DNA of 58,385 bases, taken from contig CAYPUH010000001.1 of assembly GCA_964413725.1 (NCBI GenBank), forward strand, positions 1-58,385, in the 5' to 3' direction. This DNA comes from an uncultured Cytophagia bacterium. GTDB lineage: Bacteria; Zhuqueibacterota; Zhuqueibacteria; Residuimicrobiales; Oceaniaggregativiventaceae. Positions 2,013 through 44,487 of the stretch are shown here, one piece after another; the first letter of the stretch is position 1, and each line of letters opens with the position of its first letter. Both the position numbers and the translations under genes were made by a program. Below the pieces are notes generated by a model. It was not told the DNA's origin. It saw nothing but the letters and a program-made list of their open reading frames with translations, and made no database searches.

Positions 2013-5000
2013 AGGGGCTGAGCCAGGACCACGGTTTTGACACATTCCAGCGATCGTCTTGGTTGCACGGACCACGCTTCGACGTGGACGATATATATCC
2101 CCATCCGGCATCTCCTGCCATCGTCATCTTTACCATCCCATATTACCGTACGTTCGTGTCCAACAGGTTCATTGTTACATAAAAAGCGTACTCTTCTTCC
2201 CTTGACATCAAATACCTTGATATTGACTGCGGTCGGGCGCAGGGGAAGTTCGAGATGAATCGAGGTGTGATCACAGTGTCCATCACCGTTCGGCGTAAAG
2301 GGATTGGGTTGAACGGTGAGGTTGGGGGCTTTCGGTGCGGATTCAATGGCCACACTGTTTACTCTTCCTGCGGTGTGGCCCCGGGGATCAACACTCGCCG
2401 TCCAATTCCTTGCCGATGTTCCTTTGCTCTGCGGTGAAATGCGTTCCATGGATTTGCCTTTCAGTTCCGCTGAAATAATAACGCTGTCCAGAACGATGTC
2501 GTTGCAGTCCAGAATGACCAATGTATCCTCCAGATTCAGGGCCGGCAGAGAGCGTACGGAACAAAAGGTTGCAGTATCCGGAAGCCATTCGACGACAGTC
2601 GAATCGTCACCAAAGACCAAAAATGCTCCCGGAGCGATTGAGGGTGGTTTGATATTCAATGGAATCGAATCCTCTACTCTATTGTCGTGAAACCGCCATT
2701 GCCAGCTGTCAATGGGTTCTGTTGTAGTATTATAGAGCTCGATCCATTCCGGTTCTCCCACAGCAGGTCGGTTCATCACCTCATTGATGACCAGGGTACC
2801 GCGTGGATAACTTGCATAATATAATGTGTCCAGTCTGTTATTTATGGGATTTTGATCGTTCGGGCAGATCATCTCGGCTTCCAGTGTATAAAGGCCTGCG
2901 CACATCGGTGTCCATTGAAATTGAACTGGAGAGGTCTGAAACGGAGCCAGTGTAGGCACATCTTTTCGAGCGATGGATTCCCTGGTTGAGGAGTCCTGCC
3001 CCTTACACTGCCAGAGGCGAATTTCACACGAATTGAGGGGGTGACGACCGGCATTGAGTGCGATGGCTGTTAGAGTTACCGCTTGTCCGGTCTCATATGA
3101 ATTTGACTCTATCGTAAAGGGACCTGACCATCCGGCATCAACTTCTCTGGGACTGACACTGTTTAGAAAGCCCGGCGTGGATCCATACGCATTCCGGCAC
3201 TGCGTCCAGTTGTCCGGATCATTCGACGCCATTTCATATCGAATACGCTCAATCGACCGGTTCAGATCGGTCGGACCCACATAGTCGATGCTGTCGATAA
3301 GACTTTTTGTAGCGTCATACAGAGAGATGACATCTCCGGAATTGTTCAACGGAGGGAGAGACAGCTCGATGATCGGTGCGTCGACTCTCCGGACAAAACG
3401 AGACGTGTCTTCCACCAGTACCAGATACTCACCTGCCATAATTGATGACGTCTCTGCCAGCGAGACGCATCGATGGGCATCACACAAGGTCCAGCGCACG
3501 ATATCGACAGTCTGCTCGAGAGGGTTATAGAGTTCAATCCATTCACTTTGGCTGTTATCGGGATTGAATTGAATTTCATTGATGACAAGATCGTTATAAC
3601 GGTGTCCTATAGGTTGATTAAAACTCTGGCGATTGTTATTGGGATACGTGTCTGTCGCGGCATAAAGCGTCAGAATCACCGAATGCCACCCGGGTTTGGA
3701 TTCCAGTGGGCACCGGATGGTATCTCGCTGCATTGGGTACAAAGGACTGACCGGGTAATAGTGTGTCGATCCCATCGAGTGGGTTGACCCGCAAATCCTC
3801 TGTTCAATACCGATGGAATCGATAACCGCGGGTTGATTGCCCCAGTTTACAACCGGTATCGCAACCTGAATGGAATCGCCCCGTTTGGGGATATCTGTTT
3901 TTATATCAAGATTCGGGGGCTGGAGAGCGGGATCGGAAAAGTCGCTCATATGACTGTTGGGTTCCCCGGGTGTCGAGCCGAAGGGATGTCTGCACGCCAC
4001 CCAGGAGGCTTCAGATGATGGCACCCTCCGTTCCATAGAGCAGGTCCCGGATCTGTTGATCCGGACAGAGTCGATACGAGATCCCAGAGGAGAGGTCAAT
4101 ACGACCGAGGAGATAGGCTCTGTAAACGAATCGGGCACCTTTGAATACCATGGGGAGCGACAGCTCCATTGCAAGGAATCCTGCCAGATCCCGCTGCTTA
4201 ACAGATAAAATCCGTTTGGGGGGATCGCGGATTGTGTGTCGATTGCATGATTCATCCTGTCTTTGAGGGTTGACCATTCGATGACCCATCCGTATAGCGT
4301 CACATTGGATTGAGTATGGTTGTACAATTCGATCCAGTTTTGCTCAAGGCTAGAGTATTCATTGATGATAACGTCACCAGGACAATAATCGACGGTAAAG
4401 GATATCGTATCCGCCCAGGAGAACGAGTCCGTTGACACTGTAACCCTTCGGATATGACGATCGGGTTTAAGAGGGGGCAATCGAAACGTGACGGTCAGAC
4501 TGTCTGTTGGCTGTAGCAATGAATCGATTGGGATGGAGGCGATCCTTTTCTCATCTGTGGAATGCCACAACGAAACGACAAGATTTGTTAGTGTTTTGGT
4601 TCCTGTGTTCTGAATATGTGCATGAATAGAAACAGAGTCTTTTCGGGTCGATTGGAATGGAAAAGTACAATAAAGATACAGATCGTAGGGTGGTGGAGCG
4701 ATAGAGTTGTTTTTTCCGGGAGTCCCGTTTTGAATGTCAGAGGTCGCCCAATTTTCGTAGCTGTTGGGTTTTTTGAGATAACGCCGTTCTTTTGAAAACC
4801 CGTTGGCTACCGGTACCTTGTAGGTGTGTGAACTCGAGTCCCCGTTCGGGGAGAGAAGTGTAACACATTCGGAGCGGCTGTTTGCCAGACCCCGATGTCC
4901 CAGAGAGGCATCGTCTATCGTAATGAGCAGGGTAGAGTCCGGGATCCGGGTGTGATACACCCCCTCGTTTTCAAAATAACCGGGTACCAAAACCAAGCCG

Positions 5001-20384: not shown

Positions 20385-21191
20385 TTATGGAGTGGGAGTA
20401 AAAACTCGATAAAACATGTCAATAGAACTTAAACGGTTGTCCCAGCTGCCCAGATTTGAGCAATCGAGTGTATGACGAGGGCTATATGATGTGGGTTTGC
20501 CCGCTTCCCAGTCATTATCTTCACCACCCCTATTCGCATCTTCCCAGATCTTAAAATTCACTGGCCTTGCGATATATCCATAACCACTATAGTGAGATCG
20601 ATCGTCTGTCCAGCCAAATGAACTTGTCTGGTCATTAAAATTACCTAAATAATCAAAACCACAACAGGACTGCGAATTTGCACAATTCCATATTACTTTA
20701 TGAAACCAGCCGTAGTCAATGGCTGCCTGGGAAAAGGTAAAACTATCCCCAGTATAACCGGCTCCCTTGTAAATTTTGGCTAAATGCCAACATAAAGTAA
20801 CGGCTGTTTTATGCAATCGCCTAGATTGGAATTGTAGTTGGTTCACGGATTTGATTCTATTTTCTTTGGACAATACAACATTAAATGACTGGTCAGCAAA
20901 ACCGTTGTTGTTGAAATAGAGGATATTATAGGTAGGATTTCCTTTTGTTTCTACTTTTACAATTTTTATGTTGCTATAAAGATTCTTGCCAGCAATTTCA
21001 AGTGCTTTTTCATTTACAGCATTTGGTATGGAATCAGTCATTAAGAATTTTTGGTTCTCATAAAACAACTCTGATTGATTAGTATTTTCAAGATTTGTTG
21101 TAGGGTCGGAAATACTGTTTTCGTTTTCTTGCCCACATGCAAAAAGAAAGAAACTCGCCAATAAACCGATAACAGTCAATTTTTTTTTCAT
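20385..21191 (-). CDS. Lipoprotein with a C-terminal beta-gamma-crystallin-like double Greek-key region
   Basis: 268 aa with the lipobox LFAC. The C-terminal half has two segments ending in the crystallin-type motifs NDQTSSFGW and WDNRLSSIDMFY, each preceded by aromatic-Gly patterns (IYKGAGYTGDSFTF, FKIWEDANRGG). The gene is visibly AT-rich relative to its neighbours. Confidence 0.7.
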   Translation of the reverse strand: MKKKLTVIGLLASFFLFACGQENENSISDPTTNLENTNQSELFYENQKFLMTDSIPNAVNEKALEIAGKNLYSNIKIVKVETKGNPTYNILYFNNNGFADQSFNVVLSKENRIKSVNQLQFQSRRLHKTAVTLCWHLAKIYKGAGYTGDSFTFSQAAIDYGWFHKVIWNCANSQSCCGFDYLGNFNDQTSSFGWTDDRSHYSGYGYIARPVNFKIWEDANRGGEDNDWEAGKPTSYSPRHTLDCSNLGSWDNRLSSIDMFYRVFTPTP

Positions 21192-21222
21192 TTTAAAGCC
21201 CTTTCAAATTTTCGTTGTGAGT

Positions 21223-21236
21223 CCCCTTGCGAACAA
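21223..21236. repeat. Right arm of the inverted repeat bracketing the lipoprotein gene (CCCCTTGCGAACAA)
   Basis: It is the exact reverse complement of 20363-20376 and lies 31 nt upstream of the ATG at 21191. Confidence 0.8.
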
Positions 21237-21792
21237 ATTTAAATTCTTTCCGACCTATTATTGTGTACCAAGTGGATTCGTTTATTACAGGATAATAATA
21301 ACCATATAAAAGAGAAATGATTGTTTCTGAGCAATTGACGTACAATAGTACTATTATTAGAAATATTTAAAATAATAACGAATCGTTAATGATTGGAGAT
21401 GTTGATGAGTAAGATGGTGTGAATAAAAGAGGTGAAATCATGGAGGAAACAAAAACCAGTATATTACTTACAAGGGTTTAAATAAACAATATACTTGTTC
21501 CTGTTTATCCTCATTTACCCCATTTATTATAACAAATATATTTATTATGTTAAAAGCAAGTCTTTTTTTGCTTTTGCCCTAAAAATGGGTATATATCAAT
21601 GCGATTCAAGTCCTGTTGAGGTCTGAAATCATGTATCAATCGAATTCGAGTCTTTCCTGTCTATTGGTATTGTCGTATCGTATTAGAAATATTCTACTAT
21701 TCAGTTGTGTTCCAGTGTATGAACACGAAAAGCATCGCCGCAAGGCTTGGCTTGTTTGGCGGGGTAAATGGCAACCCTTATCAAAGGAGGAT

Positions 21793-22011
21793 ATGATGAA
21801 AATCAATGAAGGAACCACCGATCGATGGATTCGCGCGATTTTGGGGATTGTGTTGTTGATTGTGGGGATCGTTGCGCTGTCAGGGACCTGGGCCTGGATT
21901 CTGGGCATTGTGGGCGTTATCTTGTTGATCACGGCTGTGACCGGATTTTGCGGATTGTATGCGATATTGGGGACGCGTACCAACAAATCCAGGACCGAAC
22001 AGGGTGGATGA
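21793..22011 (+). CDS. DUF2892 (YgaP C-terminal-like) small membrane protein
   Basis: MMKINEGTTDRWIRAILG...ITAVTGFCGLYAILG shows the two TM helices and the TGxCxxYxxxG motif typical of DUF2892. AAGGAGG lies just upstream (21784-21790). The 5' part of the tracked ORF (21616-21792) has no coding character. Confidence 0.8.
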   Translation: MMKINEGTTDRWIRAILGIVLLIVGIVALSGTWAWILGIVGVILLITAVTGFCGLYAILGTRTNKSRTEQGG

Positions 22012-24896: not shown

Positions 24897-24902
24897 GAGA
24901 GG

Positions 24903-24945
24903 AAGCCATTGTATTCAAATTGAACAACAAGCCATTGTTTTCAAA
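24903..24945. promoter_or_regulatory. Two 17-bp direct repeats (AAGCCATTGTaTTCAAA / AAGCCATTGTtTTCAAA) immediately upstream of uvrA
   Basis: The copies at 24903-24919 and 24929-24945 differ at one position and are spaced 26 bp apart. They lie 7-49 nt upstream of the uvrA ATG. This is a candidate operator or promoter element with no known binder. Confidence 0.4.
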
Positions 24946-25037
24946 ACAGAGTATAAAAAGACCGGGGATTAAAAAGAACCTCACGCAAAGCCACCAAGAG
25001 CGCAACGAACGCAAAGAAAGATAATCTCGCACAAAGA

Positions 25038-25070
25038 CACAGAGACCACCAAGAAAAAAACAAAAAGATA
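25038..25070 (+). repeat. Degenerate member of the CACAGAG / AAAAGA repeat family
   Basis: CACAGAGACCACCAAGAAAAAAACAAAAAGATA lies in the uvrA-TPR intergenic region. Confidence 0.4.
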
Positions 25071-25289
25071 ATTAAAAAAGAAATAAAGCAAATCGTCAGA
25101 TATTCCCCTACATCTTTTTGAAAGACACACGGACAGCCCACTCCCTATAATTCCCGGCTCCCCCTTTGCCCCCTCCGGATGAGCTCTGGTGACGCACCCC
25201 GGATGCCTGCTCGCTGTCCCTGACACACCCCGGAGGAGAATAACATCCATATCATTCCAATCTACCCGGGGATTAAAAAAAGTGTCTCA

Positions 25290-25338
25290 CGCAACGTTAC
25301 TCTTTAATTTTACCCTGACAGAAGGGAGTAACGTTGCG
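25290..25338. repeat. 13-bp perfect hairpin (C)GCAACGTTACTC - 23 nt - GAGTAACGTTGC(G)
   Basis: Arms are at 25290-25302 and 25326-25338. CGCAACGTTG recurs at about 25568. Confidence 0.5.
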
Positions 25339-25853
25339 CTGGGCTCGGAGCCACACGCCGCCATCCTGCTCATCTGTCAGCATATCACTTTATGATAATC
25401 CAAAGAACTGTTCTAGTGACTATTTGTACATACGAGACGCAAAGAAAAAATGGAAAACAATGACAGCGGGATCGCAAAATGGAGCATACATTTCTTTGAT
25501 CAAAAAGACGATTGTTTCGATTTTATTCATAATGGCGCTATGCGATCCCGGTGGCTGTGCGTGAGGACGCAACGTTGAATATACAAAACCATTCGACAAC
25601 AGGGAAGCAAAAAAACAGAACCTGGAACGCACGGAAGAAGAATAATCGCTCTTGACGTTGGTACCGGGATGATCAGACAGTTCAAATAAATAATGGTTTC
25701 GAGGTTGGGCATCGCTGTGCTCCGGTATTCCGGGGTTGACATTCAGGGTGGAATGTGCTATGTTTAAAGATTGAATGACGTTCAGTTCAAAAACAAACCA
25801 TCGTGTTCAACGAGGCATCAGAGGTTATCCACTTAGCGAAAGGACAACATCCC

Positions 25854-26615
25854 ATGAACCGTATCGTTGGCTTGCTGTTGATTGTTTTGATGATGGCGGG
25901 ATGGAGTGTGGCACAGGAGGATGCGGCGACTCTTGTTGCGGCGGGAGATTCTGCGTATGCCAAATTCGATGACGCCACGGCATTGGCGCGGTATGAAGCG
26001 GTGCTCGACTCTGACAGTTCACATTGTGAAGCCCTGTGGAAGGCGGCGCGGTCTCGTGTCAATCTGGGAGAAGAGAGCGACGACCTGGCCGAGCAGCACT
26101 ATCCCGTGGCCGAGGAGTTGGCACGAAAGGCGGTGTCCGTGTGTCCGGAGAATGCCGATGCCAATCTGACCCTGGCCATTGCGGTGGGGCGGCTGGCGCT
26201 GCTCAGAGGCGGACGCACCAAGCTGGAATTGTCCAAGGATGTCAAAACATATGCTGTCAAAACCCTCGAACTGGATCCGTCCAAGGATATCGCCCACCAT
26301 GTGCTGGCGCGGTGGCACCGGGAAGTGACCGAGATCGGCGGGTTGAAAAAGATGGTGGTCAAGGTGATCTATGGCGGACTCCCGGATGCCAGCAAGGAAA
26401 AGGCGGTGGAGCATTTTCAAAAAGCCATCGAACTGGCGCCGGACTATATCAACCATCATCTCGAGCTGGGCATGACCTACGAGACCATGGACGAGTGGCA
26501 AAAAGCCAAAGAGGCCTATGAGACGGCGTTGAGTCTCTCTCCCCAGGCCCCCGAGGACTCGCGCTATATCCTGCAGGCGCGAAAGCGGTTGGACGAGGTG
26601 GAGAAAAAGTTATAG
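25854..26615 (+). CDS. Secreted tetratricopeptide-repeat (TPR) protein
   Basis: I chose the start at MNRIVGLLLIVLMMAGWSVAQ, which is a signal peptide. TPR-like A/Y/L periodicity runs through the protein (ALARYEAVL, AIELAPDY, AKEAYETAL). Confidence 0.8.
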   Translation: MNRIVGLLLIVLMMAGWSVAQEDAATLVAAGDSAYAKFDDATALARYEAVLDSDSSHCEALWKAARSRVNLGEESDDLAEQHYPVAEELARKAVSVCPENADANLTLAIAVGRLALLRGGRTKLELSKDVKTYAVKTLELDPSKDIAHHVLARWHREVTEIGGLKKMVVKVIYGGLPDASKEKAVEHFQKAIELAPDYINHHLELGMTYETMDEWQKAKEAYETALSLSPQAPEDSRYILQARKRLDEVEKKL

Positions 26616-26626
26616 CCTCTACACAC

Positions 26627-26664
26627 AAAACGTCCTGGTTTGAATGAGCCAGGACGTTTTTTTT
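26627..26664 (+). terminator. Rho-independent terminator of the TPR gene
   Basis: AAAACGTCCTGG-tttgaatgag-CCAGGACG is followed by T8. Confidence 0.9.
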
Positions 26665-26722
26665 GTTCCCGGCCAGTGGCTAGGAATGTCGTCCAGCGGG
26701 TCCTGCAAGCCTCTGAGGTACG

Positions 26723-26892
26723 GAGGGCACGGGGAGAGAGACTTGAAAAAACGATCTCTGTGGGCCCTGTGCCTCAGTGAGAGGAAAAGGAATAACAGGA
26801 TTCTCACAGAGGGCACGGAGGATCACAGAGGAAAAAAGAGAAAGAGATTGTCAAATGGAATTTGAATCGCTCATTCCATGAACAGGTGGGGA
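26723..26892 (+). repeat. Direct repeat copy 1 (170 bp) flanking vapBC
   Basis: It is identical to 27855-28010 over 156 bp, then has 2 mismatches in the last 14 bp. It contains CACAGAG motifs and the hairpin CTCAGTGAGA..TCTCACAGAG. Confidence 0.95.
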
Positions 26893-26925
26893 ATAGGGTG
26901 AGCCTTGACAATGCTGATCGACATG

Positions 26926-27330
26926 TTAAAACTCTTTCTGGTCTGCCAAGTGTATCGTGAATTTCGGAAAGGCGTTTAGGAGCTTTTTGTCGGTCGTGAT
27001 CAAGGGATGTGCGAGATCCCGTGCAAGCGCAATGTACTCGCAATCATAAGCACTGCATCCCGATTGTTCCGATAACTCGAGTACATCTTTTGATTGGACT
27101 CTATACTCCCCGTCACGCAGGATCAATTCAGCTTTTTCCATTAAAAAGAGTGCTTCAGCGAGATTCAGATGTTTATTTCTGATATAGGTAGCGAGCACAT
27201 TTTGAAATTCGCTTTTCCAAAGTTGTGGAGCACGCCAGTCAGGATCGTTTCGCAATAAATTTTGCGCCTGTTCGGTATAGGTCCCCCTGATGAGCATATA
27301 GGCAACAACATTGGTATCCACTATTTTCAT
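26926..27330 (-). CDS. vapC: PIN-domain toxin VapC
   Basis: 134 aa. The N-terminal MKIVDTNV carries the PIN Asp, later acidic residues are conserved, and there is a 4-nt ATGA overlap with the upstream antitoxin. Confidence 0.9.
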   Translation of the reverse strand: MKIVDTNVVAYMLIRGTYTEQAQNLLRNDPDWRAPQLWKSEFQNVLATYIRNKHLNLAEALFLMEKAELILRDGEYRVQSKDVLELSEQSGCSAYDCEYIALARDLAHPLITTDKKLLNAFPKFTIHLADQKEF

Positions 27331-27569
27331 TTTCGGCCAGCCTTTTTATACTCTGTGAGCATATCATCGTTCAAAGCAGGAATCTTTTTGTCCCGATAAA
27401 AAATATTGATTTGATCGATTATTTCATCAGGATCGATCTTTTTACTGTGAACGACTGTTTCGATACAATGAATGACCTGACTGTTGATACTTCGCCGATG
27501 AAGGTTTGCGCTTTCTTTTAGTTTTTGGTAAAGGTCATTGGGAATATTTTTTATGGTTATCGTTGCCAT
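27327..27569 (-). CDS. vapB: Ribbon-helix-helix antitoxin (VapB/FitA-like, Arc/MetJ family)
   Basis: MATITIKNIPNDLYQKLKESANLHRRSINSQV has the RHH pattern. AGGAGA lies upstream of ATG 27569. The longer tracked ORF (to 27656) is not needed. Confidence 0.85.
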   Translation of the reverse strand: MATITIKNIPNDLYQKLKESANLHRRSINSQVIHCIETVVHSKKIDPDEIIDQINIFYRDKKIPALNDDMLTEYKKAGRK

Positions 27570-27694
27570 GACGATTCTCCTGTTTTGTATTCCAGAATGA
27601 AACCATAATGCAATATACATTTCTCGGCTCGAAATGTCAATACATTGTTCAACCATGGCTTGAAACCCGTCTCTGCTGTCTGTCCTCCCGGATG

Positions 27695-27720
27695 ACCACA
27701 GAGAAGATAAAGAGAAAGAT
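27695..27720 (+). repeat. Short member of the CACAGAG / AAAGAGAAAGA repeat family
   Basis: ACCACAGAGAAGATAAAGAGAAAGAT lies upstream of vapB. Confidence 0.4.
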
Positions 27721-27854
27721 CGATGACAGGGATAGGTTCACTCTTGTCTACAATAGAGTCGTTGATCATTCTCACGCCAAGCTGCCAGGAATAGCTTTTA
27801 AGCGTAAAGCATTGTTGTTCACCATAGAGTCTTTCAGCCAAAGAATAATAACCA

Positions 27855-28024
27855 GAGGGCACGGGGAGAGAGACTTGAAAAAACGATCTCTGTGGGCCCT
27901 GTGCCTCAGTGAGAGGAAAAGGAATAACAGGATTCTCACAGAGGGCACGGAGGATCACAGAGGAAAAAAGAGAAAGAGATTGTCAAATGGAATTTGAATC
28001 GCTCATTCCACGAACGGGTGGGGA
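27855..28024 (+). repeat. Direct repeat copy 2 (170 bp) flanking vapBC
   Basis: Same sequence as 26723-26892, offset by exactly 1132 bp. Confidence 0.95.
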
Positions 28025-28146
28025 CTAAAAATGAGTCTGGGGTGGGAAATATCGGAGGTGGACAGTCGCTGTCAGTCAGTGCAGAGTCATCCGTACGGGA
28101 TATTACTTGACCTGATCGGAGGCAGAGCCTGTGAACCCGGGGATAT

Positions 28147-29313
28147 TTACAACCTGTTCAGATCATTTGATATAAAGTGCTCCAGTGAACAAACGTTTAT
28201 CGTCTTCCGGGCATTGTACCGTTCGCCTCTTGGTATGATCACATAATTTTTCTTTGTTTTCAGATCATCGATGGCGATTTGAAATCCCCGACTGATTTTT
28301 GGCGCAGCCGAGTATTTAACTTCTAAACACGATACCGGACGGCCTCCACGAGACAATACCAGATCACTCTCTGTGCCGGCATGAGTCCGGTAGTAATAGA
28401 GCGACAGATCATCCGGCAGGATCTGAATAATCTGTTCAATGACATAACCCTCCCAGGAACTCCCGATATTGACATATCCCTGCAGACTCTCGAAATCCCT
28501 GACACCGAGAAGGGAATGCAAGACTCCGCTGTCACGGATATAGATTTTTGGCGATTTTACCAGGCGTTTTTTGATATTGATGGAAAAAGGCTGAATTCTG
28601 CGTATCAAAAATGCCTCTTCCAAAAAGTCCACATACCGGTTCACGGTAGGGACGGTCACTCCCAACGCATTGGCGAAGGTACTGGCATTCCAGATTCCGC
28701 CATGATAGTGCGCCAGCATGGTCCACAATTTCTGGATCTGTGTCGGAGAGGCAGACAATCCAAGCAGTCGCAAATCCCGCTCTGTATAGGTCTTGATAAA
28801 ATGCTGCAGCCAAAGTTTGTAGGCCTTTTCGGATGGCGCCAAAAACGCTTCCGGGAATCCACCACGGAACCAATGTTGTTCCATCGTCCCTGTTGATTCA
28901 ATTTCTGTCAGATTAAAGGGTGTCAGTTCTTTATAGGCAATCCGTCCGGCAAGGGTTTCTGAACTGTTTTTTAACAATTCAGGTGAAGAGGATCCCAGAA
29001 TCAAAAATCGGCCCGGAACCCGCCTTTTATCGATCAATCCCCTGAACACGGGTAACAGGTCCGGAACATGATGAATCTCATCAATGATGATGCATCGATC
29101 CAAATGCTGTTCCAGATATAATTCCGGATTGTCCATCTTGACCCTGTCCTGTTGCAGCTCCATATCCAGATATTTACACTCTTTGTCCAGTTCAGACATC
29201 AGCTTTTTGGCCAGTGTTGTTTTACCGATCTGGCGCGGGCCAATAATCCCCACCATCGGAAAATAATGGAGCCATTCAAGGATACTCTCAGTCGCATATC
29301 GAGGAATATACAT
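28147..29313 (-). CDS. AAA_14 / DUF4143-type ATPase
   Basis: 388 aa with Walker A (GPRQIGKTT) and Walker B (CIIIDEIH). The C-terminal region is typical of the DUF4143 family. The gene is AT-rich. Confidence 0.85.
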   Translation of the reverse strand: MYIPRYATESILEWLHYFPMVGIIGPRQIGKTTLAKKLMSELDKECKYLDMELQQDRVKMDNPELYLEQHLDRCIIIDEIHHVPDLLPVFRGLIDKRRVPGRFLILGSSSPELLKNSSETLAGRIAYKELTPFNLTEIESTGTMEQHWFRGGFPEAFLAPSEKAYKLWLQHFIKTYTERDLRLLGLSASPTQIQKLWTMLAHYHGGIWNASTFANALGVTVPTVNRYVDFLEEAFLIRRIQPFSINIKKRLVKSPKIYIRDSGVLHSLLGVRDFESLQGYVNIGSSWEGYVIEQIIQILPDDLSLYYYRTHAGTESDLVLSRGGRPVSCLEVKYSAAPKISRGFQIAIDDLKTKKNYVIIPRGERYNARKTINVCSLEHFISNDLNRL

Positions 29314-29317
29314 GAAT

Positions 29318-29358
29318 TACCTTGAAAAATTTAAATTAAAATATGAATTTTCAAGGTA
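29318..29358. promoter_or_regulatory. Near-perfect palindrome TACCTTGAAAAATT / AATTTTCAAGGTA just upstream of the ATPase start
   Basis: The 13-bp arms at 29318-29331 and 29346-29358 pair with one bulged A. The site starts 5 nt upstream of the ATPase ATG (29313). Confidence 0.45.
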
Positions 29359-29382
29359 AATTGATGAAAAAGGGGGTCAAAG

Positions 29383-29613
29383 TCAAGGTGTTTTTTCAAA
29401 AATTGCACGATTTTCGATCTTTTCATTTTTATCATCTCCGGCCAGAGGCTCAAATGGCATTTGAATGTCCCCAAAAAATGGAATCGAAACGTCCCCACCC
29501 TCAAAAACCCTGTGCCATTCCTCATAAAGCGAGGCAATTCTTTTAAACGTTCTCGACAAAAAACTTGATTTTGTAAATAAAAATTCGTTATTATACTTAG
29601 GAAATAAATACAA
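29383..29613 (-). CDS. Hypothetical small protein (possibly a gene remnant) upstream of the AAA ATPase
   Basis: 76-aa ORF. The segment RIASLYEEWHRVFEGGDVSIPFFGDIQMPFEPL looks protein-like, but I recognise no family and see no clear RBS. Confidence 0.3.
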   Translation of the reverse strand: MYLFPKYNNEFLFTKSSFLSRTFKRIASLYEEWHRVFEGGDVSIPFFGDIQMPFEPLAGDDKNEKIENRAIFEKTP

Positions 29614-29875
29614 TTGATTTGAATGGCTTAATTAATATCTTTAACACCCAGGGGAGTATGGTGATTCGAGGCCGTTGTGACATCTGGTGTTCCTTGCGAA
29701 CGTTGACCTGCGAACGCGGGGTTGGGGGGTATCCGTGGTGGCGACGGTGGATGCCGAGGCGACGATCGGGCTCGAATGTCATGCTCGTCCTGGTTCTGAT
29801 CTGATCCTGCCCGTTTATTACCCCAAACTCGACCATAACAACACGATGAATGACCTCATGGACTGAGAGGACCCC

Positions 29876-32800
29876 ATGTCTATTACACATAACAGTTCTA
29901 TACCCGGCCGTCCCCCCCGTCTGGGTCTTTACCATCCGGACTTTGAGCACGATGCCTGTGGTATCGGCTTTGTCGCCGACATCAAACAGGGGGCCTCGCA
30001 TGAGATGTTAGACCGGGCTGTGGACATTCTCGACCATCTCAAGCATCGCGGCGCGGTGGGCGGCGATACCGCTACCGGCGATGGCGCCGGTCTGATGATG
30101 CAGATCCCGGATGCCTTTTTCCGGTCTACTCTGGGAGCCGAGATGACGCTTCCTCCTGAGGGCCACTATGCGGTGGGGATGGTCTTCCTGCCCCAAGATG
30201 CCGAGCAGCGTCGGCGATGCCGTCAGCGCTGCGAAGAGGCCGTTACGGCTCAGGGCGGCGTGATCCTGGGATGGCGCCCGGTGCCGGTGCAGTCCGCCTG
30301 CCTGGGCGAGCTGGCTCGCTCCACCGAGCCGGTGATCGAACAACTGTTCATCGGTCGCGGCGAGATTCCAGCCCTTCGCCTGGAAAGCCGGCTCCTGGTG
30401 ATGCGTCGATGGATGGAAAAAGAGATCCGTGCTGAAGAGGATCCACAGGGCTATTTCTATGTCGCCAGTCTCTCCAGCCACAAGATCGTCTATAAAGGCC
30501 TGATGACCGGCGATCAGATCGCTACCTATTACCCGGATCTGAAACAACCCGAGTGTGCCAGTGCGTATGTGATGGTGCACCAGCGCTACAGCACCAACAC
30601 CTGGCCCACCTGGCCGCTGGCGCAGCCGTTCCGTTTTCTCGCCCATAACGGCGAGATCAACACCTTGCGCGCCAATATCAACCGGATGAAGTCCAGAGAA
30701 CCGCTGATGCAGTCCGACGTCTTTGACACGGACATGGAGACACTGCGTCCTATCATCCAGGAGGGCACCAGCGATTCTTCGGTTTTTGACAACGTCCTGG
30801 AGTTGCTGGTTCTCTCCGGACGCTCGTTGCCGCACGCGATGATGATGATGATCCCCGAGGCGCACGGTCCGCGCATTCCCATGAGTGCGGACAAGCGCGC
30901 CTTTTATGAATACCACTCGGCGTTGATGGAACCCTGGGACGGTCCGGCGGCGGTGACGTTTTGCGATGGCCGCTATATCGGTGCCACCCTGGACCGCAAC
31001 GGTCTGCGTCCGGCCCGCTATACCCTGACGCGCGACGGGTTGATCGTGCTGGCATCCGAGAGCGGTGTTCTCGATATCCCGGCAGACCGGATTCTCCGGC
31101 GGGGACGGTTGCAACCCGGAAAGATGTTTCTGGTGGATCTGGTGCAGCGGCGTGTGGTGCCGGATCAGGAGATAAAGTCGCGCATTGCCCGCCAGCGTCC
31201 CTACCGGCGCTGGATCCGGGAGAACCGCATCGAACTGAGGGGCCTGTTCGCCCCGTCCAAGAATCCGGCCTGTGACGAATCCGTGTTGATTCGTCTGCAG
31301 CATGTGTTTGGATACACGCGCGAAGAGATCCGCATGCTCATCACGCCCATGGCCTCACATGGCCAGGAGCCGGTGGGGTCCATGGGCAATGATGCCGCCC
31401 TGGCCGTGCTTTCTGATCGTCCACAACTTCTCTTTTCCTATTTCAAGCAGCGATTTGCCCAGGTGACCAATCCCCCCATCGATCCGTTGCGGGAAGAGCT
31501 GGTGATGTCTCTGGAGAGCTTTGTGGGCACCGAACAGAACATCCTTCGCGAAGACCCCGAATATTATCGCGGGCTCAAGCTGTCTCATCCCATCCTCACC
31601 CCGGCGGATATGGGACGGATTCGCGAGGCCGATCATCCCGAGATCATCACCCGAGATATCGACATGTTGTTTGCCGTTGAGGAGAACGGACGGAGCATCA
31701 AAGACGATTTACATCGTCTGTTCGAGCAGGCCGAAGCGGCCATAGATGAAGGCGTTACCATGGTGATTCTCAGTGATCAGAATCTGAACCGCAACCAGGC
31801 TCCCCTGCCGGTGCTCCTGGCCGCCTCGGGGTTGCATCAACATCTCATCCGTCGCGGCAAGCGAAACCGGGCCGGCATTATCGTCGAGACCGGTGAAGCC
31901 CGCGAGGTGATTCATTTTGCCCTGTTGATCGCCTATGGTGTGGATGCAATTTCTCCCTATCTTGCTTTTCATACCATCCACCATCTGGCCGAAACGGGCA
32001 TGCTCGCGCATCAGAACTCTCCTCATGTGGCGATGGACGCCTATATCACAGCCATCAAGAAAGGCGTCCTCAAAACCATGAGCCGGATGGGAATTTCCAC
32101 TCTGCACGGATTTTTCGGATCCCAGATTTTTGAAGCGGTGGGTGTCAATGAAGAGGTGGTAGAGACCTATTTTACCGGTACGCCCTCCCGTATCGGTGGC
32201 ATCGGTCTGGAAGAGATGGCTCGCGACGTGAGCCGGCGTCATCTGAACGGATTTCCCGATATGGGGTCACCGGATCCCTTGCTCGAGGCGGGGGGTGTGT
32301 ATCACATCCGTCGTGGCGGGGAGCATCACATGTGGACCACCGAGGCGATCCATCAGCTACAGACGGCGACGCGTCGTCAGGATTATGCCCAGTTCAAATC
32401 CTTTACCGCGCATATGAACGAGCACTCGACGTCACAGGCCACGCTGCGAGGGCTGATGCGAATCCGGGAGCGTCCGTCGATTCCTCTTGAGCGGGTGGAA
32501 CCGGAGGAGGTGATCACCTGCCGGTTTGTGACCGCCGCCATGTCGTTCGGCTCCATCAGCAAGGAGGCGCATGAGGCTCTGGCCATTGCCCTGAACCGGG
32601 TGGGGGGACGCAGCAATTCCGGTGAGGGAGGCGAAGATCCGGTGCGCTATCAGTCGTTGCCCAATGGCGACAGCAAGCGATCGCGCATCAAACAGATCGC
32701 CTCCGGCCGTTTTGGTGTGACCACAGAGTATCTCATGAACGCCGATGAGGTGCAGATCAAGATGGCACAGGGTGCCAAGCCCGGGGAGGGGGGACAGCTG

Positions 32801-41758: not shown

Positions 41759-41790
41759 CTGGTGTCCGGTTACCGGACACCAGTGTATTT
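41759..41790 (+). terminator. Rho-independent terminator (CTGGTGTCCGG-tta-CCGGACACCAG)
   Basis: An 11-bp perfect stem lies 4 nt after the stop codon and is followed by TGTATTTAACTTTA. Confidence 0.75.
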
Positions 41791-42879: not shown

Positions 42880-44124
42880 ATGAAGATGAAAAAGATCAAG
42901 GTTGTTTTGTGTGTTTTGTTTATGCTGAGTATACAGAGTTATGCTCAGCTGCTTGTTAAGGGTCATTTAGAGAGTACCGTGATGCGGGTGACGTCGTCTG
43001 GTGACGTTGGAATTGCTATCGGGGATGCCACTCCTGCTGCGACATTGGATATAGGCGGGGATTTACGAATTGGCACCGTGAGCGATGAAGGGAACAGTGA
43101 TGACATTTCGGTATTGGTTCTGGATGGTGGCATTGTGAAAAAACGAACCCTCACCGCCGACATCTGGGACGGCGATGCCACCGGTTCCGGGGCAGATGGT
43201 GTGGTCACCAGTGCCAATTTTTCCGGTAGCGCCAGCAAAACCCTGACGCTTGGCCGCAGCAATGGCTTGTCCGATCTGACAGCCTCTTTTAGCGATCGCT
43301 TTGAAGCCAACACTGACAATCAAAACCTCAGCTATACCAATCTCAATGCGCCCACCGGGCACTATACAACACACCGGGTGGATATCACCGGCGGCACGAA
43401 TGCCACCATCAGGGATTATTATGATCCCAATACCGACAATCAGAATCTCTATAATGTACTGGGTTATGATGGAGGGGATGCTGGTGGACGTAGTGCTGTC
43501 AATGTGGGTTCTCTAGCTATAGGTGCTGACGACGCCAATGGGGCAACTCTTCGGGCCGTGGGATTTGTGAATGTTGAGGGAAGTCAGCATATTCATAACA
43601 ACCTGACCGTTGCCTGGTCTGGCGACCCTGCTTCTGCTGCCTATATCGGTACCAATGCCCAGCCGACGAATCCTTCAGGAAACTACAAATTGGTGGTCAA
43701 TGGACCTCTCTATGTCCATGGCGGCGCTCGTATGTGTTTCGATGGAGGCAGTAAACTGGGTATTGGAGTTCCCAATCCTACTTCATCTCTGGCTATTGCC
43801 AATCTGCCCTCCGGCTCCGAAATGAATATCACGGCAGATAATACCGGTAATCTCTATCGGGACACTTCTTCCAGACGATATAAAGAGAATATCCAACCCC
43901 TGGACGATGATTTTGCAAAAATTCTACAACTCGCCCCTCGTTCTTTTATATATAAAGACAGTCAACTCGAATCTTTTGGATATATAGCAGAGGAACTGGA
44001 TGATCTCGGCCTGGATAACCTTGTCATTTACAATGAAGAGGGCGATCCGGAATCGATTCGGTATGACAAGTTATCCGTTTATTTAATCGAGATTGTTAAA
44101 GATCTGTATTCTCGAGTGAATTAA
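42880..44124 (+). CDS. Secreted tail-fibre-like protein with a C-terminal intramolecular-chaperone (peptidase S74) domain
   Basis: It has a signal peptide and the motif VGIAIGDATPAATLDIGGDLRIG, typical of tail-fibre-like proteins. NTDNQNL is duplicated. The C-terminal DTSSRRYKENIQPL...GYIAEEL...IRYDKL matches the S74 autoproteolytic chaperone signature (S..R.K.NI). The real start may be the second ATG (42886), 6 nt after GAGGA. Confidence 0.8.
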   Translation: MKMKKIKVVLCVLFMLSIQSYAQLLVKGHLESTVMRVTSSGDVGIAIGDATPAATLDIGGDLRIGTVSDEGNSDDISVLVLDGGIVKKRTLTADIWDGDATGSGADGVVTSANFSGSASKTLTLGRSNGLSDLTASFSDRFEANTDNQNLSYTNLNAPTGHYTTHRVDITGGTNATIRDYYDPNTDNQNLYNVLGYDGGDAGGRSAVNVGSLAIGADDANGATLRAVGFVNVEGSQHIHNNLTVAWSGDPASAAYIGTNAQPTNPSGNYKLVVNGPLYVHGGARMCFDGGSKLGIGVPNPTSSLAIANLPSGSEMNITADNTGNLYRDTSSRRYKENIQPLDDDFAKILQLAPRSFIYKDSQLESFGYIAEELDDLGLDNLVIYNEEGDPESIRYDKLSVYLIEIVKDLYSRVN

Positions 44125-44256
44125 GCTGATCTCAATTAATCGTCATTCCTGTACTGTGTGTTGCTCAGGCATGTTCTGATCAACCGTTTTTAAAATAATG
44201 TCCGCATACATTCTTGTCCAAAATAGATTTTTGCAACCAAAAGATGATAACAAGAG

Positions 44257-44294
44257 CTCACAGAGAACCGCAGAGGAAAAAGAGAGAAAGATAA
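44257..44294 (+). repeat. Member of the CACAGAG / AAAGAGAAAGA repeat family
   Basis: CTCACAGAGAACCGCAGAGGAAAAAGAGAGAAAGATA resembles positions 26803-26850 of the 170-bp repeat. Confidence 0.6.
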
Positions 44295-44435: not shown

Positions 44436-44487
44436 TTTTTTCTCTCTGTGGTCTCACTTTTTGTTCTCTGAAAAACTCTGTTTTTTT
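44436..44487 (-). repeat. Member of the CACAGAG repeat family in inverted orientation
   Basis: The plus strand reads TTTTTTCTCTCTGTGGTCTCACTTTTTGTTCTCTGAAAAACTCTG. Its reverse complement contains GTGAGACCACAGAGAGAAAAA. Confidence 0.55.

Follow-up and report, generated by a model that had tools for sequence, protein, structure and literature searches.

Several described systems resemble in part a locus of an uncultured sediment bacterium, probably a member of candidate division KSB1, in which a vapBC toxin-antitoxin (TA) module lies between two direct repeats (R1 and R2, collectively R) in a 58,385-nucleotide stretch of DNA, referred to as the window. Restriction-modification modules inserted with a long target duplication are selfish two-gene units that carry neither a transposase nor an integrase, are flanked by direct repeats of about 100 bp or more and have a low GC content relative to the host, all of which also applies to the R locus. 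On the other hand, no single-repeat empty site was found for the R locus, R is a modular hairpin with partial relatives, and its copies show gene conversion.

Mosaic repeats of the REP/BIME type are imperfect palindromes composed of reusable sub-modules, which follow the 3' ends of genes, are restricted to particular lineages and serve as substrates of recombination, as is also the case for R. However, R is much longer than REP, occurs at full length only twice (as judged by depth) and is not accompanied by a RAYT transposase gene in the window; when dispersed copies were sought in the window and in the loose ends of unitigs, only sub-modules of R recurred. Integron TA cassettes are likewise small TA units bounded by similar, structured direct repeats of ~100-170 bp, and the idea that TA modules stabilise repeat arrays could be applied to both. 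The integron attC assignment was nevertheless rejected, as the core sites R'' (RYYYAAC) and R' (GTTRRRY) were found on neither strand of R1 or R2 with 30 nt on either side, no integrase is encoded in the ~38 open reading frames (ORFs), only two repeats are present and their structure is unlike attC.

Direct repeats of more than 150 bp separated by 1 kb are a standard substrate for deletion and duplication by homologous recombination. R1 and R2 have these dimensions, which they share with the substrates of RecA-dependent pop-out (IS26-type translocatable units and Campbell excision), whereas the R locus contains no IS, and neither a circular form nor a 1132-bp deletion was observed in the unitig graphs. 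Finally, the cargo agrees with other type II VapBC modules in that the antitoxin gene precedes the toxin gene and overlaps it by 4 nt (ATGA), the toxin has a PIN domain with its acidic residues, and the antitoxin is a ribbon-helix-helix (RHH) protein; the predicted strong promoter contains an inverted repeat that may be suited to autoregulation. The genes themselves are nothing unusual.

The vapBC module and its setting

The initial annotation described vapC (PIN) and vapB (RHH), with an ATGA overlap, as the only genes between the repeats, which was confirmed by Pfam and gene positions (Table 1). The acidic residues D5, E41, D96 and D114 of VapC are present (by eye in the translation), and the protein could be aligned with PDB entry 2fe1 (PAE0151) over residues 3-124 (E 3e-6); among solved structures, the nearest is that of an archaeal PIN protein, with low similarity. 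Both the gene call and an exact look-up place the true start of vapB at 27569 rather than 27572, an AGGAG ribosome-binding site can be read ahead of its ATG, and its stop codon overlaps the vapC start (TCAT on the plus strand, 27327-27330). Between the hexamers of the predicted promoter, a 7-bp inverted repeat, ACATTTC/GAAATGT (27617-27637), was recognised by eye, which is likely the VapB operator. No NCBIfam equivalog match was obtained for the two proteins, and the long ORFs in the remaining cargo (27573-27854) gave no Pfam match that would indicate a coding remnant. Judging from its sequence, vapBC appears to be an intact, self-contained type II TA module with its own sigma-70 promoter.

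Table 1. Features of the R locus, with positions in the window (a dot marks features without strand)
Feature	Position	Strand	Basis and context
Terminator hairpin of the TPR gene	26627-26660	+	Terminator scan; A and T runs on its sides, possibly bidirectional; left limit of conserved DNA
Hypervariable segment	26675-28120	.	Unrelated DNA here in relatives L019, L021 and L022 (~91% nucleotide identity)
R1, left copy of the 173-nt direct repeat	26723-26895	.	33 nt downstream of the vapC stop, minus strand; also in contig L001 of the second MAG
Imperfect hairpin of the R core (CCTCTGTG...CACAGAG type)	26756-26831	-	Folding, -31.7 kcal/mol, z -4.1; R2 equivalent at 27888-27963
vapC, PIN-domain toxin, 134 aa	26926-27330	-	Pfam PF01850, E 1.6e-7, 32.4 bits vs cut-off 23.6
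vapB, FitA-like ribbon-helix-helix antitoxin, 80 aa	27327-27569	-	Pfam PF22513 (FitA-like_RHH), E 2.1e-9, 37.6 bits vs cut-off 27
Predicted vapBC promoter, TTGACA-17-TATATT	27612-27640	-	Consensus promoter scan, 11/12 matches
R-like 31-nt fragment in the cargo	27689-27719	.	26/31 identical to R positions 94-122
Tail between the R-like fragment and R2	27720-27854	.	Non-coding by Pfam; variant junction just right of the fragment
R2, right copy of the 173-nt direct repeat	27855-28027	.	120 nt downstream of the AAA_14 stop, minus strand
AAA_14/DUF4143 ATPase gene	28147-29313	-	Pfam

The structure had also been placed just past the terminator of the TPR gene, at the edge of an AT-rich islet holding the AAA_14/DUF4143 gene, and both the terminator and the base composition agree with this: the cargo has a GC content of 0.42 and the islet (26616-29875) one of 0.45, compared with 0.51 for the window as a whole and 0.55-0.62 for the genes on either side. 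Homology to the relative L019 stops at 26674, and the points of divergence in the relatives at 91% identity are exactly 26674 and 28121, with other genes inside. AAA_14 adjoins gltB in these relatives and is absent from the distant relative L004, and is therefore regarded as an older layer of the islet; in the distant relative, TPR lies beside gltB. The orthologous locus of L019, L021 and L022, where an empty site with one repeat might have been expected, contains neither vapBC nor any R. Nothing shows that the vapBC pair is a self-mobile cassette; it is probably an ordinary TA module, acquired horizontally, in a recombination-prone, repeat-rich hotspot.

A modular hairpin repeat in two copies

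Direct comparison bore out the earlier description of ~170-bp direct repeats lying 1132 bp apart, with the first 156 positions identical and the mismatches near the 3' end. R1 and R2 are 98% identical overall, and no further pair of this kind was detected by a repeat search of the 58-kb window. The 156 identical bases correspond to 26723-26878 of R1, followed by mismatches at 26879 (T/C), 26884 (A/G) and 26893 (A/C), and similarity ends from 26896/28028; the left edge is sharp, five of the six preceding bases being different. As judged from the sequence, an exact repeat of 156 nt within 58 kb cannot be a matter of chance. The duplication is also the source, as had been proposed, of an identical spurious peptide (GHGERDLKK...LSNGI) in the ORFs 26644-26865 and 27608-27997, both of which should be treated in annotation as artefacts of R. 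A DGR template/variable repeat pair was considered and rejected: no reverse transcriptase was found, the mismatches are of the types T/C, A/G and A/C, and neither repeat is located within a gene.

The R core folds into a hairpin with a loop of 19 nt. On the minus strand, the stem is followed after 4 nt by U6 (the A-run 26746-26751 on the plus strand), a terminator-like arrangement, although it was not among the terminators predicted by the consensus scan, and Rfam returned no match at the gathering score and none at E <= 1 for 26500-28200. On the minus strand, R comes after AAA_14 and vapC, and its long hairpin and U-run may, speculatively, serve as a terminator or insulator. Other parts of the window, and the DNA of unrelated bacteria, also contain hairpins of the CACAGAG type. 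Moreover, unitig graphs and alignment revealed another locus in which R positions 137-173 reappear with the beginning of the right flank but without the R core; a module consisting of the 3' end of R2 and ~27 nt at the beginning of the right flank has a paralogue elsewhere, and beyond R position 173 no significant similarity was detected between the two right flanks. R is an intergenic repeat that forms hairpins, is built of modules and is specific to its lineage.

The initial annotation had suggested that R could be a dispersed landing pad in the genome. Depth corresponds to two full-length copies and only short sub-motifs recur elsewhere, which speaks against this view. No further full-length R was found in the window, related loci, GTDB genomes, JGI metagenomes, viral contigs, plasmids or phages. 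A 21-mer of R had 0 matches in GTDB, a 19-mer matched a single unrelated soil contig in the JGI metagenomes that shares just the generic 29-nt CACAGAGG hairpin arm, and a protein search for other contexts of R with the ORF that spans it returned only the ORF of the second metagenome-assembled genome (MAG). Several mobility signatures were also examined. No recombinase was found among the ~38 ORFs scanned in the window, in line with what had been stated before. A MITE or IS was rejected, with a best terminal inverted-repeat alignment score of 6, unrelated flanking 12-mers without a target-site duplication, and no transposase; so were a tRNA/tmRNA attachment site (none in the window) and a plasmid, phage or viral source of the unit or of R (no matches).

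Assembly, gene conversion and structural variation

The same R-cargo-R layout is present in contig L001 of the second MAG (99.9% identical). In the unitig graphs of five runs, the R node has ~2x the depth of the flanks and the cargo (8.79 vs 4.3-5.4 in run X2 and 7.26 vs 3.1-4.2 in run X3), cargo and flanks have a depth ratio of ~1 in runs from two studies, and all four junctions (L-R, R-cargo, cargo-R and R-F) appear as unitigs in several runs of the two studies. A collapsed or misjoined repeat, against which the earlier reading had warned, is thus contradicted by the agreement of two independent assemblies and by the doubled depth of R. As the unitig graph is identical for L-R-cargo-R-F and for L-R-F plus a circle, the preference for the integrated form comes only from the depth ratios and the read-pair resolution of two assemblers. 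Four raw-read runs of 2026 with the same label (X12-X15) contained no read from the locus, and no RNA run containing it was found. For MAG assembly in general, such loci bracketed by repeats call for caution.

Two haplotypes could be distinguished. In the window, both R copies have G at 26784 and CA at 26805, and L001 and runs X1, X2 and X5 carry A at 26784 and a 2-nt deletion at 26805, again in both. The two haplotypes differ at two R sites, and both copies have the same state in each strain; therefore, the R copies undergo gene conversion. In run X2 a single R node of double depth was observed, and in run X5 a unitig passing from the cargo into R2 carries the variant state. Copy-specific single-nucleotide differences between R1 and R2 were found at 26857, 26879 and 26884; the first of these is A in R1 only (runs X1, X2, X4 and X5), on both haplotype backgrounds, as expected for patchy conversion. 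MAG assemblers can assign one sequence to both copies of a collapsed repeat, which partly weakens the evidence for concerted evolution, and the unitig evidence for concerted change (X2, X3 and X5) is better than that of the MAGs but has a depth of only 3-9x. Within these limits, a weak contribution of the MAGs and shallow unitigs, the data show that the 156-nt identity is maintained by intrachromosomal gene conversion.

The locus is also structurally polymorphic among natural populations. In runs X6 and X8, a junction 26845 -> 27731 (26845/TTGATGACAT/27731) skips 885 bp including vapBC, which was the only alternative junction found in the unitig graphs. It leads from R1 position 123 to a point just past the 31-nt R-like fragment in the cargo, not to R2. 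The alignment score of this fragment is 35, compared with 20 +/- 2.7 for shuffled sequences (0/300 as high), and an extension of the cargo homology to R positions 19-53 was not significant. In run X6 neither vapC nor vapB was detected, and the flanks match the window at 100% identity; part of the tail (27731-27783) is common to the variant haplotype, and the rest of the variant (tail') has diverged. Three valid readings of the X6 graph exist, one of which includes a true single-R empty site and another of which lacks vapBC and has two R copies separated by 131 nt. Exact-protein look-ups with TPR, VapB and VapC for an assembled variant haplotype yielded nothing beyond the second MAG and unitigs from run X1.

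Explanations of the layout and their implications

The best explanation, to which we give about an even chance, is a vapBC module situated between two gene-converting hairpin repeats in a hypervariable gap, between TPR and AAA_14-gltB, of a sediment bacterium. R1 and R2 would be neighbouring copies of a modular hairpin repeat whose identity is kept by gene conversion, and the layout would not be the scar of a dedicated mobility mechanism. Homologous recombination of the host on R-family sequence would generate presence/absence and length variants of the intervening DNA, and the addiction function of vapBC would penalise cells that lose the segment. The earlier proposal of repeat-mediated recombination stands in part: R1 and R2 do recombine, as indicated by the concerted changes across strains, and the locus is polymorphic, while no dispersed landing pad was found and the only alternative junction seen is not the 1132-bp one it had envisaged. 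In its Campbell-type form, a small circle carrying one R and vapBC would have recombined into a chromosomal R, so that the 1132-bp unit could pop out and re-integrate via RecA. Such an event gives exactly the same sequence pattern as the layout described above. It fits the repeat-cargo-repeat order with a sharp left edge, the low GC of the cargo and the lack of vapBC in one population with identical flanks (where one X6 reading is L-R-F with the rest elsewhere), and it draws on copies that demonstrably recombine with no need for a recombinase. However, no second full-length R target turned up in any search, a 1.1-kb circle would have no replication function, the depth of R is ~2x that of the flanks (X2 and X3) with the cargo at ~1:1 and not in excess, and the sole alternative junction skips 885 bp and uses the internal R-like fragment rather than R2, so this origin is considered unlikely. 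A bolder version, in which R-family hairpins act as a recombinase-free cassette site and addiction modules are swapped in, out and between loci by host recombination through a transient 1132-bp circle, would make one of the X6 readings a true empty site with relocated cassette-derived sequence, and is a long shot.

Insertion that duplicates a long target, as known for restriction-modification modules, would have brought vapBC into a single-R site and duplicated ~170 bp of target. An addiction module with no mobility gene and flanking direct repeats >30 bp fits a class in PMC2853133, and the paralogue of the R2/right-flank continuity suggests that R2 is the original copy. Nevertheless, no related genome with a single repeat at an empty site was found, which is the test that defines this class, the relatives at 91% identity (L019, L021 and L022) lack R, the variant haplotype can be read as retaining both R copies but not vapBC, and the mismatches gather at one edge; such an insertion seems distinctly improbable. 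Only slightly more doubtful is a chance arrangement, which is the third class in PMC2853133: vapBC landed between two pre-existing members of the repeat family that had no part in its arrival or loss. The modularity of R, the related motifs scattered through intergenic DNA and the X6 reading with two R copies 131 nt apart and no vapBC agree with this account, which overlaps largely with the best explanation; yet conversion or a recent copy would still be needed for the 156-nt perfect identity, and the variant junction at the R-like fragment implicates R-family sequence in rearrangement. Very improbable, finally, is an artefact, in which short-read assembly of a MAG mis-joined sequence or collapsed the repeat, or a new duplication that placed 1132-bp units head to tail. 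Both MAGs are indeed short-read metagenome assemblies and the 170-nt repeat exceeds the k-mers used, but the two independent assemblies agree, the four junctions appear as unitigs and R has ~2x depth. The simple recent tandem duplication that had been offered as an alternative does not fit either, as only 1.15 units are present instead of two, copy-specific differences exist at 26857, 26879 and 26884, and a separate paralogue exists for the 3' end of R with the right flank.

Current views of TA biology are unchanged by this locus. What has been documented, in a poorly known sediment lineage, is a repeat specific to that lineage, the conversion of its two copies by one another and strain-level structural variation at a TA hotspot. 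If the repeats mediate gain and loss of vapBC, the locus would be a clean natural case of addiction modules moving within a population by means of host recombination and short structured repeats, and the TA pair could protect a segment that is prone to deletion.

The repeat pair and the vapBC module

A repeat search over the 58 kb of the window and direct comparison of the copies identified one sole long direct repeat, the hairpin-forming element R, whose left (R1) and right (R2) copies start 1132 bp apart and match perfectly over the initial 156 bases, as the initial annotation had described. The mismatches are 26879 T/C, 26884 A/G and 26893 A/C; similarity ends at 26896/28028, and the left edge is abrupt. 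Pfam searches and translation also bore out a vapC and an RHH vapB with an ATGA overlap between the copies, with the start of vapB, previously placed 3 nt too far upstream, at 27569. Two ORFs with the common peptide GHGERDLKK..., neither of which has a Pfam match, are a by-product of the repeat, as had been suspected. The vapBC genes themselves are ordinary. On the basis of the near-consensus promoter, the inverted repeat, an AGGAG ribosome-binding site read ahead of the vapB start codon, and a VapC that aligns to the PIN protein PAE0151 with its acidic residues retained, the module is predicted to be self-contained.

Features of the repeat-vapBC locus and related sequence blocks
Feature	Position	Strand	Description	Source
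R1	26723-26895		direct repeat, left copy	repeat search and direct comparison
R2	27855-28027		direct repeat, right copy	repeat search and direct comparison
vapC	26926-27330	minus	PIN	Pfam
vapB	27327-27569	minus	FitA-like RHH	
vapBC promoter	27640-27612	minus	TTGACA-17-TATATT, near-consensus	promoter scan
Inverted repeat	27617-27637		7 bp, ACATTTC/GAAATGT, between promoter hexamers	read from sequence
CACAGAG-type blocks	44253-44291 and 44436-44485			sequence search
CACAGAG-type blocks	24975-25060			read from sequence

Folding of R gives a long, imperfect CCTCTGTG...CACAGAG-type hairpin (minus strand, -31.7 kcal/mol, z -4.1), with U6 4 nt later. The minus-strand order is the AAA_14 gene, R2, the tail (27720-27854), an R-like fragment, the vapBC promoter, vapB, vapC, R1 and the TPR terminator; thus, each full R stands after a gene's 3' end. 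A predicted role as terminator or insulator is plausible from this arrangement; a consensus scan did not call R as a terminator. No Rfam family was matched, even at E <= 1, and no tRNA gene was found close to R. An integron attC site was rejected because R has no attC core boxes, and a MITE/IS-type element because it has neither terminal inverted repeats nor a flanking target duplication. Approximately 38 window ORFs were scanned, comprising housekeeping genes (purA, secDF, citrate lyase, uvrA, gltBD, purC, aconitase-type, ilvB/D-type), and no integrase, transposase or resolvase was found among them, in agreement with the earlier observation.

Distribution and composition of R

The proposal that R is a dispersed genomic landing pad was not upheld. 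No third full-length copy was present in the window and none in the relatives' loci; GTDB species genomes and viral contigs had no exact match, plasmids and phages yielded nothing, and a single JGI metagenome match had only a generic 29-nt hairpin arm in common. Unitig depth indicates two copies per genome. On the other hand, parts of R recur. Within the cargo (the DNA between R1 and R2), 27689-27719 resembles R positions 94-122 (26/31 identity; score 35 vs 20 +/- 2.7 for shuffles, 0/300 as high). In six runs, R positions 137-173 are found again at a second locus, along with the initial ~27 nt of the right flank and with unrelated DNA ahead (22/26 identity to 28028-28054), and further unitigs join or exit R at positions 86, 115 and 123. 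An unrelated soil contig has CACAGAG-type blocks as well. Being built of recurring sub-modules, R is best described, from its sequence, as a BIME-style mosaic intergenic repeat specific to its lineage.

Several other repeats and patches were observed in the window. The downstream CACAGAG-type motifs lie as an inverted pair, spaced by ~150 nt, in the stretch that follows a gene at 42880-44124, and the first of them is 82% like R positions 86-123; that gene, whose surroundings are otherwise chromosomal, encodes a protein of 414 aa whose C-terminal domain is Peptidase_S74, an endosialidase chaperone typically found in phage tail fibres. A stretch of ~900 nt ahead of the TPR gene (24900-25800), without a convincing gene, contains the purine-rich CGCAAAG/CACAGAG blocks and a high-copy dispersed repeat (25150-25300), with unitig depth up to 84 vs ~7 for neighbours in run X1, ~50 in X10, and many different continuations. 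The palindrome TGGTGTCCGGTTACCGGACACCA (41760-41782), also found at both ends of a unitig from the relative L019 (1-25, 2132-2156), is probably one of a dispersed set of palindromic repeats at which assemblies break off. A 53-nt inverted repeat (74-126/15173-15225; 77% complementary, 15 kb apart) has a GGATTCGGTGC...GCACCGAATCC palindrome in each arm. A strongly AT-rich block (20600-21800, GC 0.29-0.36), which overlaps an ORF without Pfam match (20385-21191) and lies next to a gene for a YgaP-like membrane protein, is possibly a further acquired patch.

Layout, gene conversion and population variants

Assembly error as the source of the duplication is countered by three observations. The R-cargo-R order is retained in a second MAG (GCA_054922275.1; 99.9% identity across 8.9 kb), the four junctions between left flank, R, cargo and right flank were each found in Logan unitigs from several runs of two studies, and the R node has ~2x the depth of all other segments (X2: 8.79 vs 4.32 left, 4.9-5.4 cargo and 5.1 right; X3: 7.26 vs 3.1-4.2 elsewhere). 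The unitig graph alone looks alike for the integrated form and for an empty site plus free circle; the integrated form is favoured by the 1:1 cargo/flank depth in every cargo-carrying sample (ratio 0.6-1.6) and by read-pair resolution by two assemblers.

Two places in R distinguish the window from the second MAG, 26784 (G/A) and 26805 (CA indel), and within each genome the two R copies agree at both sites. This is not merely an assembler effect, since the A/deletion form is one node at double depth in X2 and is borne by a unitig from cargo (27799) into R2 in X5, and the G/CA form is one node at double depth in X3 and is borne by a unitig from R1 into vapC in X4. A third site is mosaic, 26857 being A in R1 only on both backgrounds (X1, X2, X4, X5). 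Derived states common to both copies, together with this site, demonstrate gene conversion between R1 and R2; the perfect 156-nt tract therefore reflects maintained identity and not necessarily a very recent event.

Natural variants were also detected. In X6, which comes from one study with X3 and X7, and in X8, from another marine-sediment study, a unitig connects R position 123 (26845) to 27731 by the ten letters TTGATGACAT and leaves out 885 bp with vapC, vapB and their promoter. The right breakpoint lies directly past the 31-nt R-like fragment, so the rearrangement is bounded by R-family sequence, not by R2. X8 contains both this junction and vapBC. In X6, the flanks (25200-26751 and 27948-30000) have 100% identity to the window, the depth is zero over 26912-27535 and at the cargo-R2 junction of window type, and a diverged tail replaces the window-type tail; another entry into R ('...CAATAACAACAGAGACATG|GAGGGC') and an orphan unitig matching 27542-27760 identically were also present. 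The X6 graph is consistent with a single R between the flanks plus a short tandem array elsewhere, with R positions 1-123, 131 nt and a full R (two repeats without vapBC), and with a different, unrelated cargo between repeats. Four raw-read runs with the same label contained none of the organism. Natural populations can safely be said to vary in the DNA that lies between the repeats and around them, and vapBC is not fixed.

Relatives and the origin of the arrangement

Named homologues of the TPR protein belong mostly to candidate division KSB1. In a distant relative (TPR 47%, GltB 63% identical), gltB directly follows the TPR gene, which marks the whole islet 26616-29875 as an addition. In the proposed comparison with relatives without vapBC, at ~91% nucleotide identity, left homology ends at 26674, just past the TPR terminator (L019), and right homology at 28121, 26 nt beyond the AAA_14 stop (L021 and L022). 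Downstream of AAA_14, in place of R-vapBC-R, L022 has two unrelated genes (2828-4384), encoding a 189-aa Cys-rich protein of fn3/Ig-like type and one of 293 aa that has no Pfam match. These breaks and genes establish 26675-28120 as a hotspot whose cargo differs between close relatives; R plus vapBC is specific to the window's species. The AAA_14/DUF4143 ATPase (28147-29313) is kept beside gltB in the 91%-identity relatives and absent from the distant one, implying a layered islet in which the ATPase insertion is older than the R/vapBC segment. Ahead of the TPR gene, where repeats alone are present in the window, L019 has a higA-like HTH_3 gene and a remnant resembling higB (200-733); this makes a second point of TA-type insertion in the neighbourhood.

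The best explanation, held with about even confidence, is that gene conversion has homogenised two adjacent modular hairpin repeats in a recombination-prone hotspot, and that a vapBC module, probably of horizontal origin, lies between them. A Campbell-type circle carrying vapBC and integrated at R would leave an identical sequence pattern; it is rather unlikely, having neither a second landing site, nor an excess of cargo depth, nor an observed junction in unitigs, which look alike for both forms. The closest phenomenon described is insertion with long target duplication, which restriction-modification addiction modules are known to show (PMC3874152, PMC2853133); no empty site with a single copy of the repeat, the feature that defines it, was found, and it appears quite unlikely. 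Chance insertion between pre-existing repeats overlaps the best explanation and was considered very unlikely as a separate account, and an artefact or simple tandem duplication is highly unlikely.

Under the preferred explanation of converted repeats in a hotspot, host homologous recombination on R-family sequence would generate the length and presence/absence variants. In toxin-antitoxin systems, the toxin is stable and the antitoxin labile. Loss of the segment would thus free the PIN toxin from its antitoxin, and vapBC may thereby slow its own deletion. R is a new, lineage-restricted repeat; the arrangement is of a known kind, an addiction module between long direct repeats at a variable chromosomal site.
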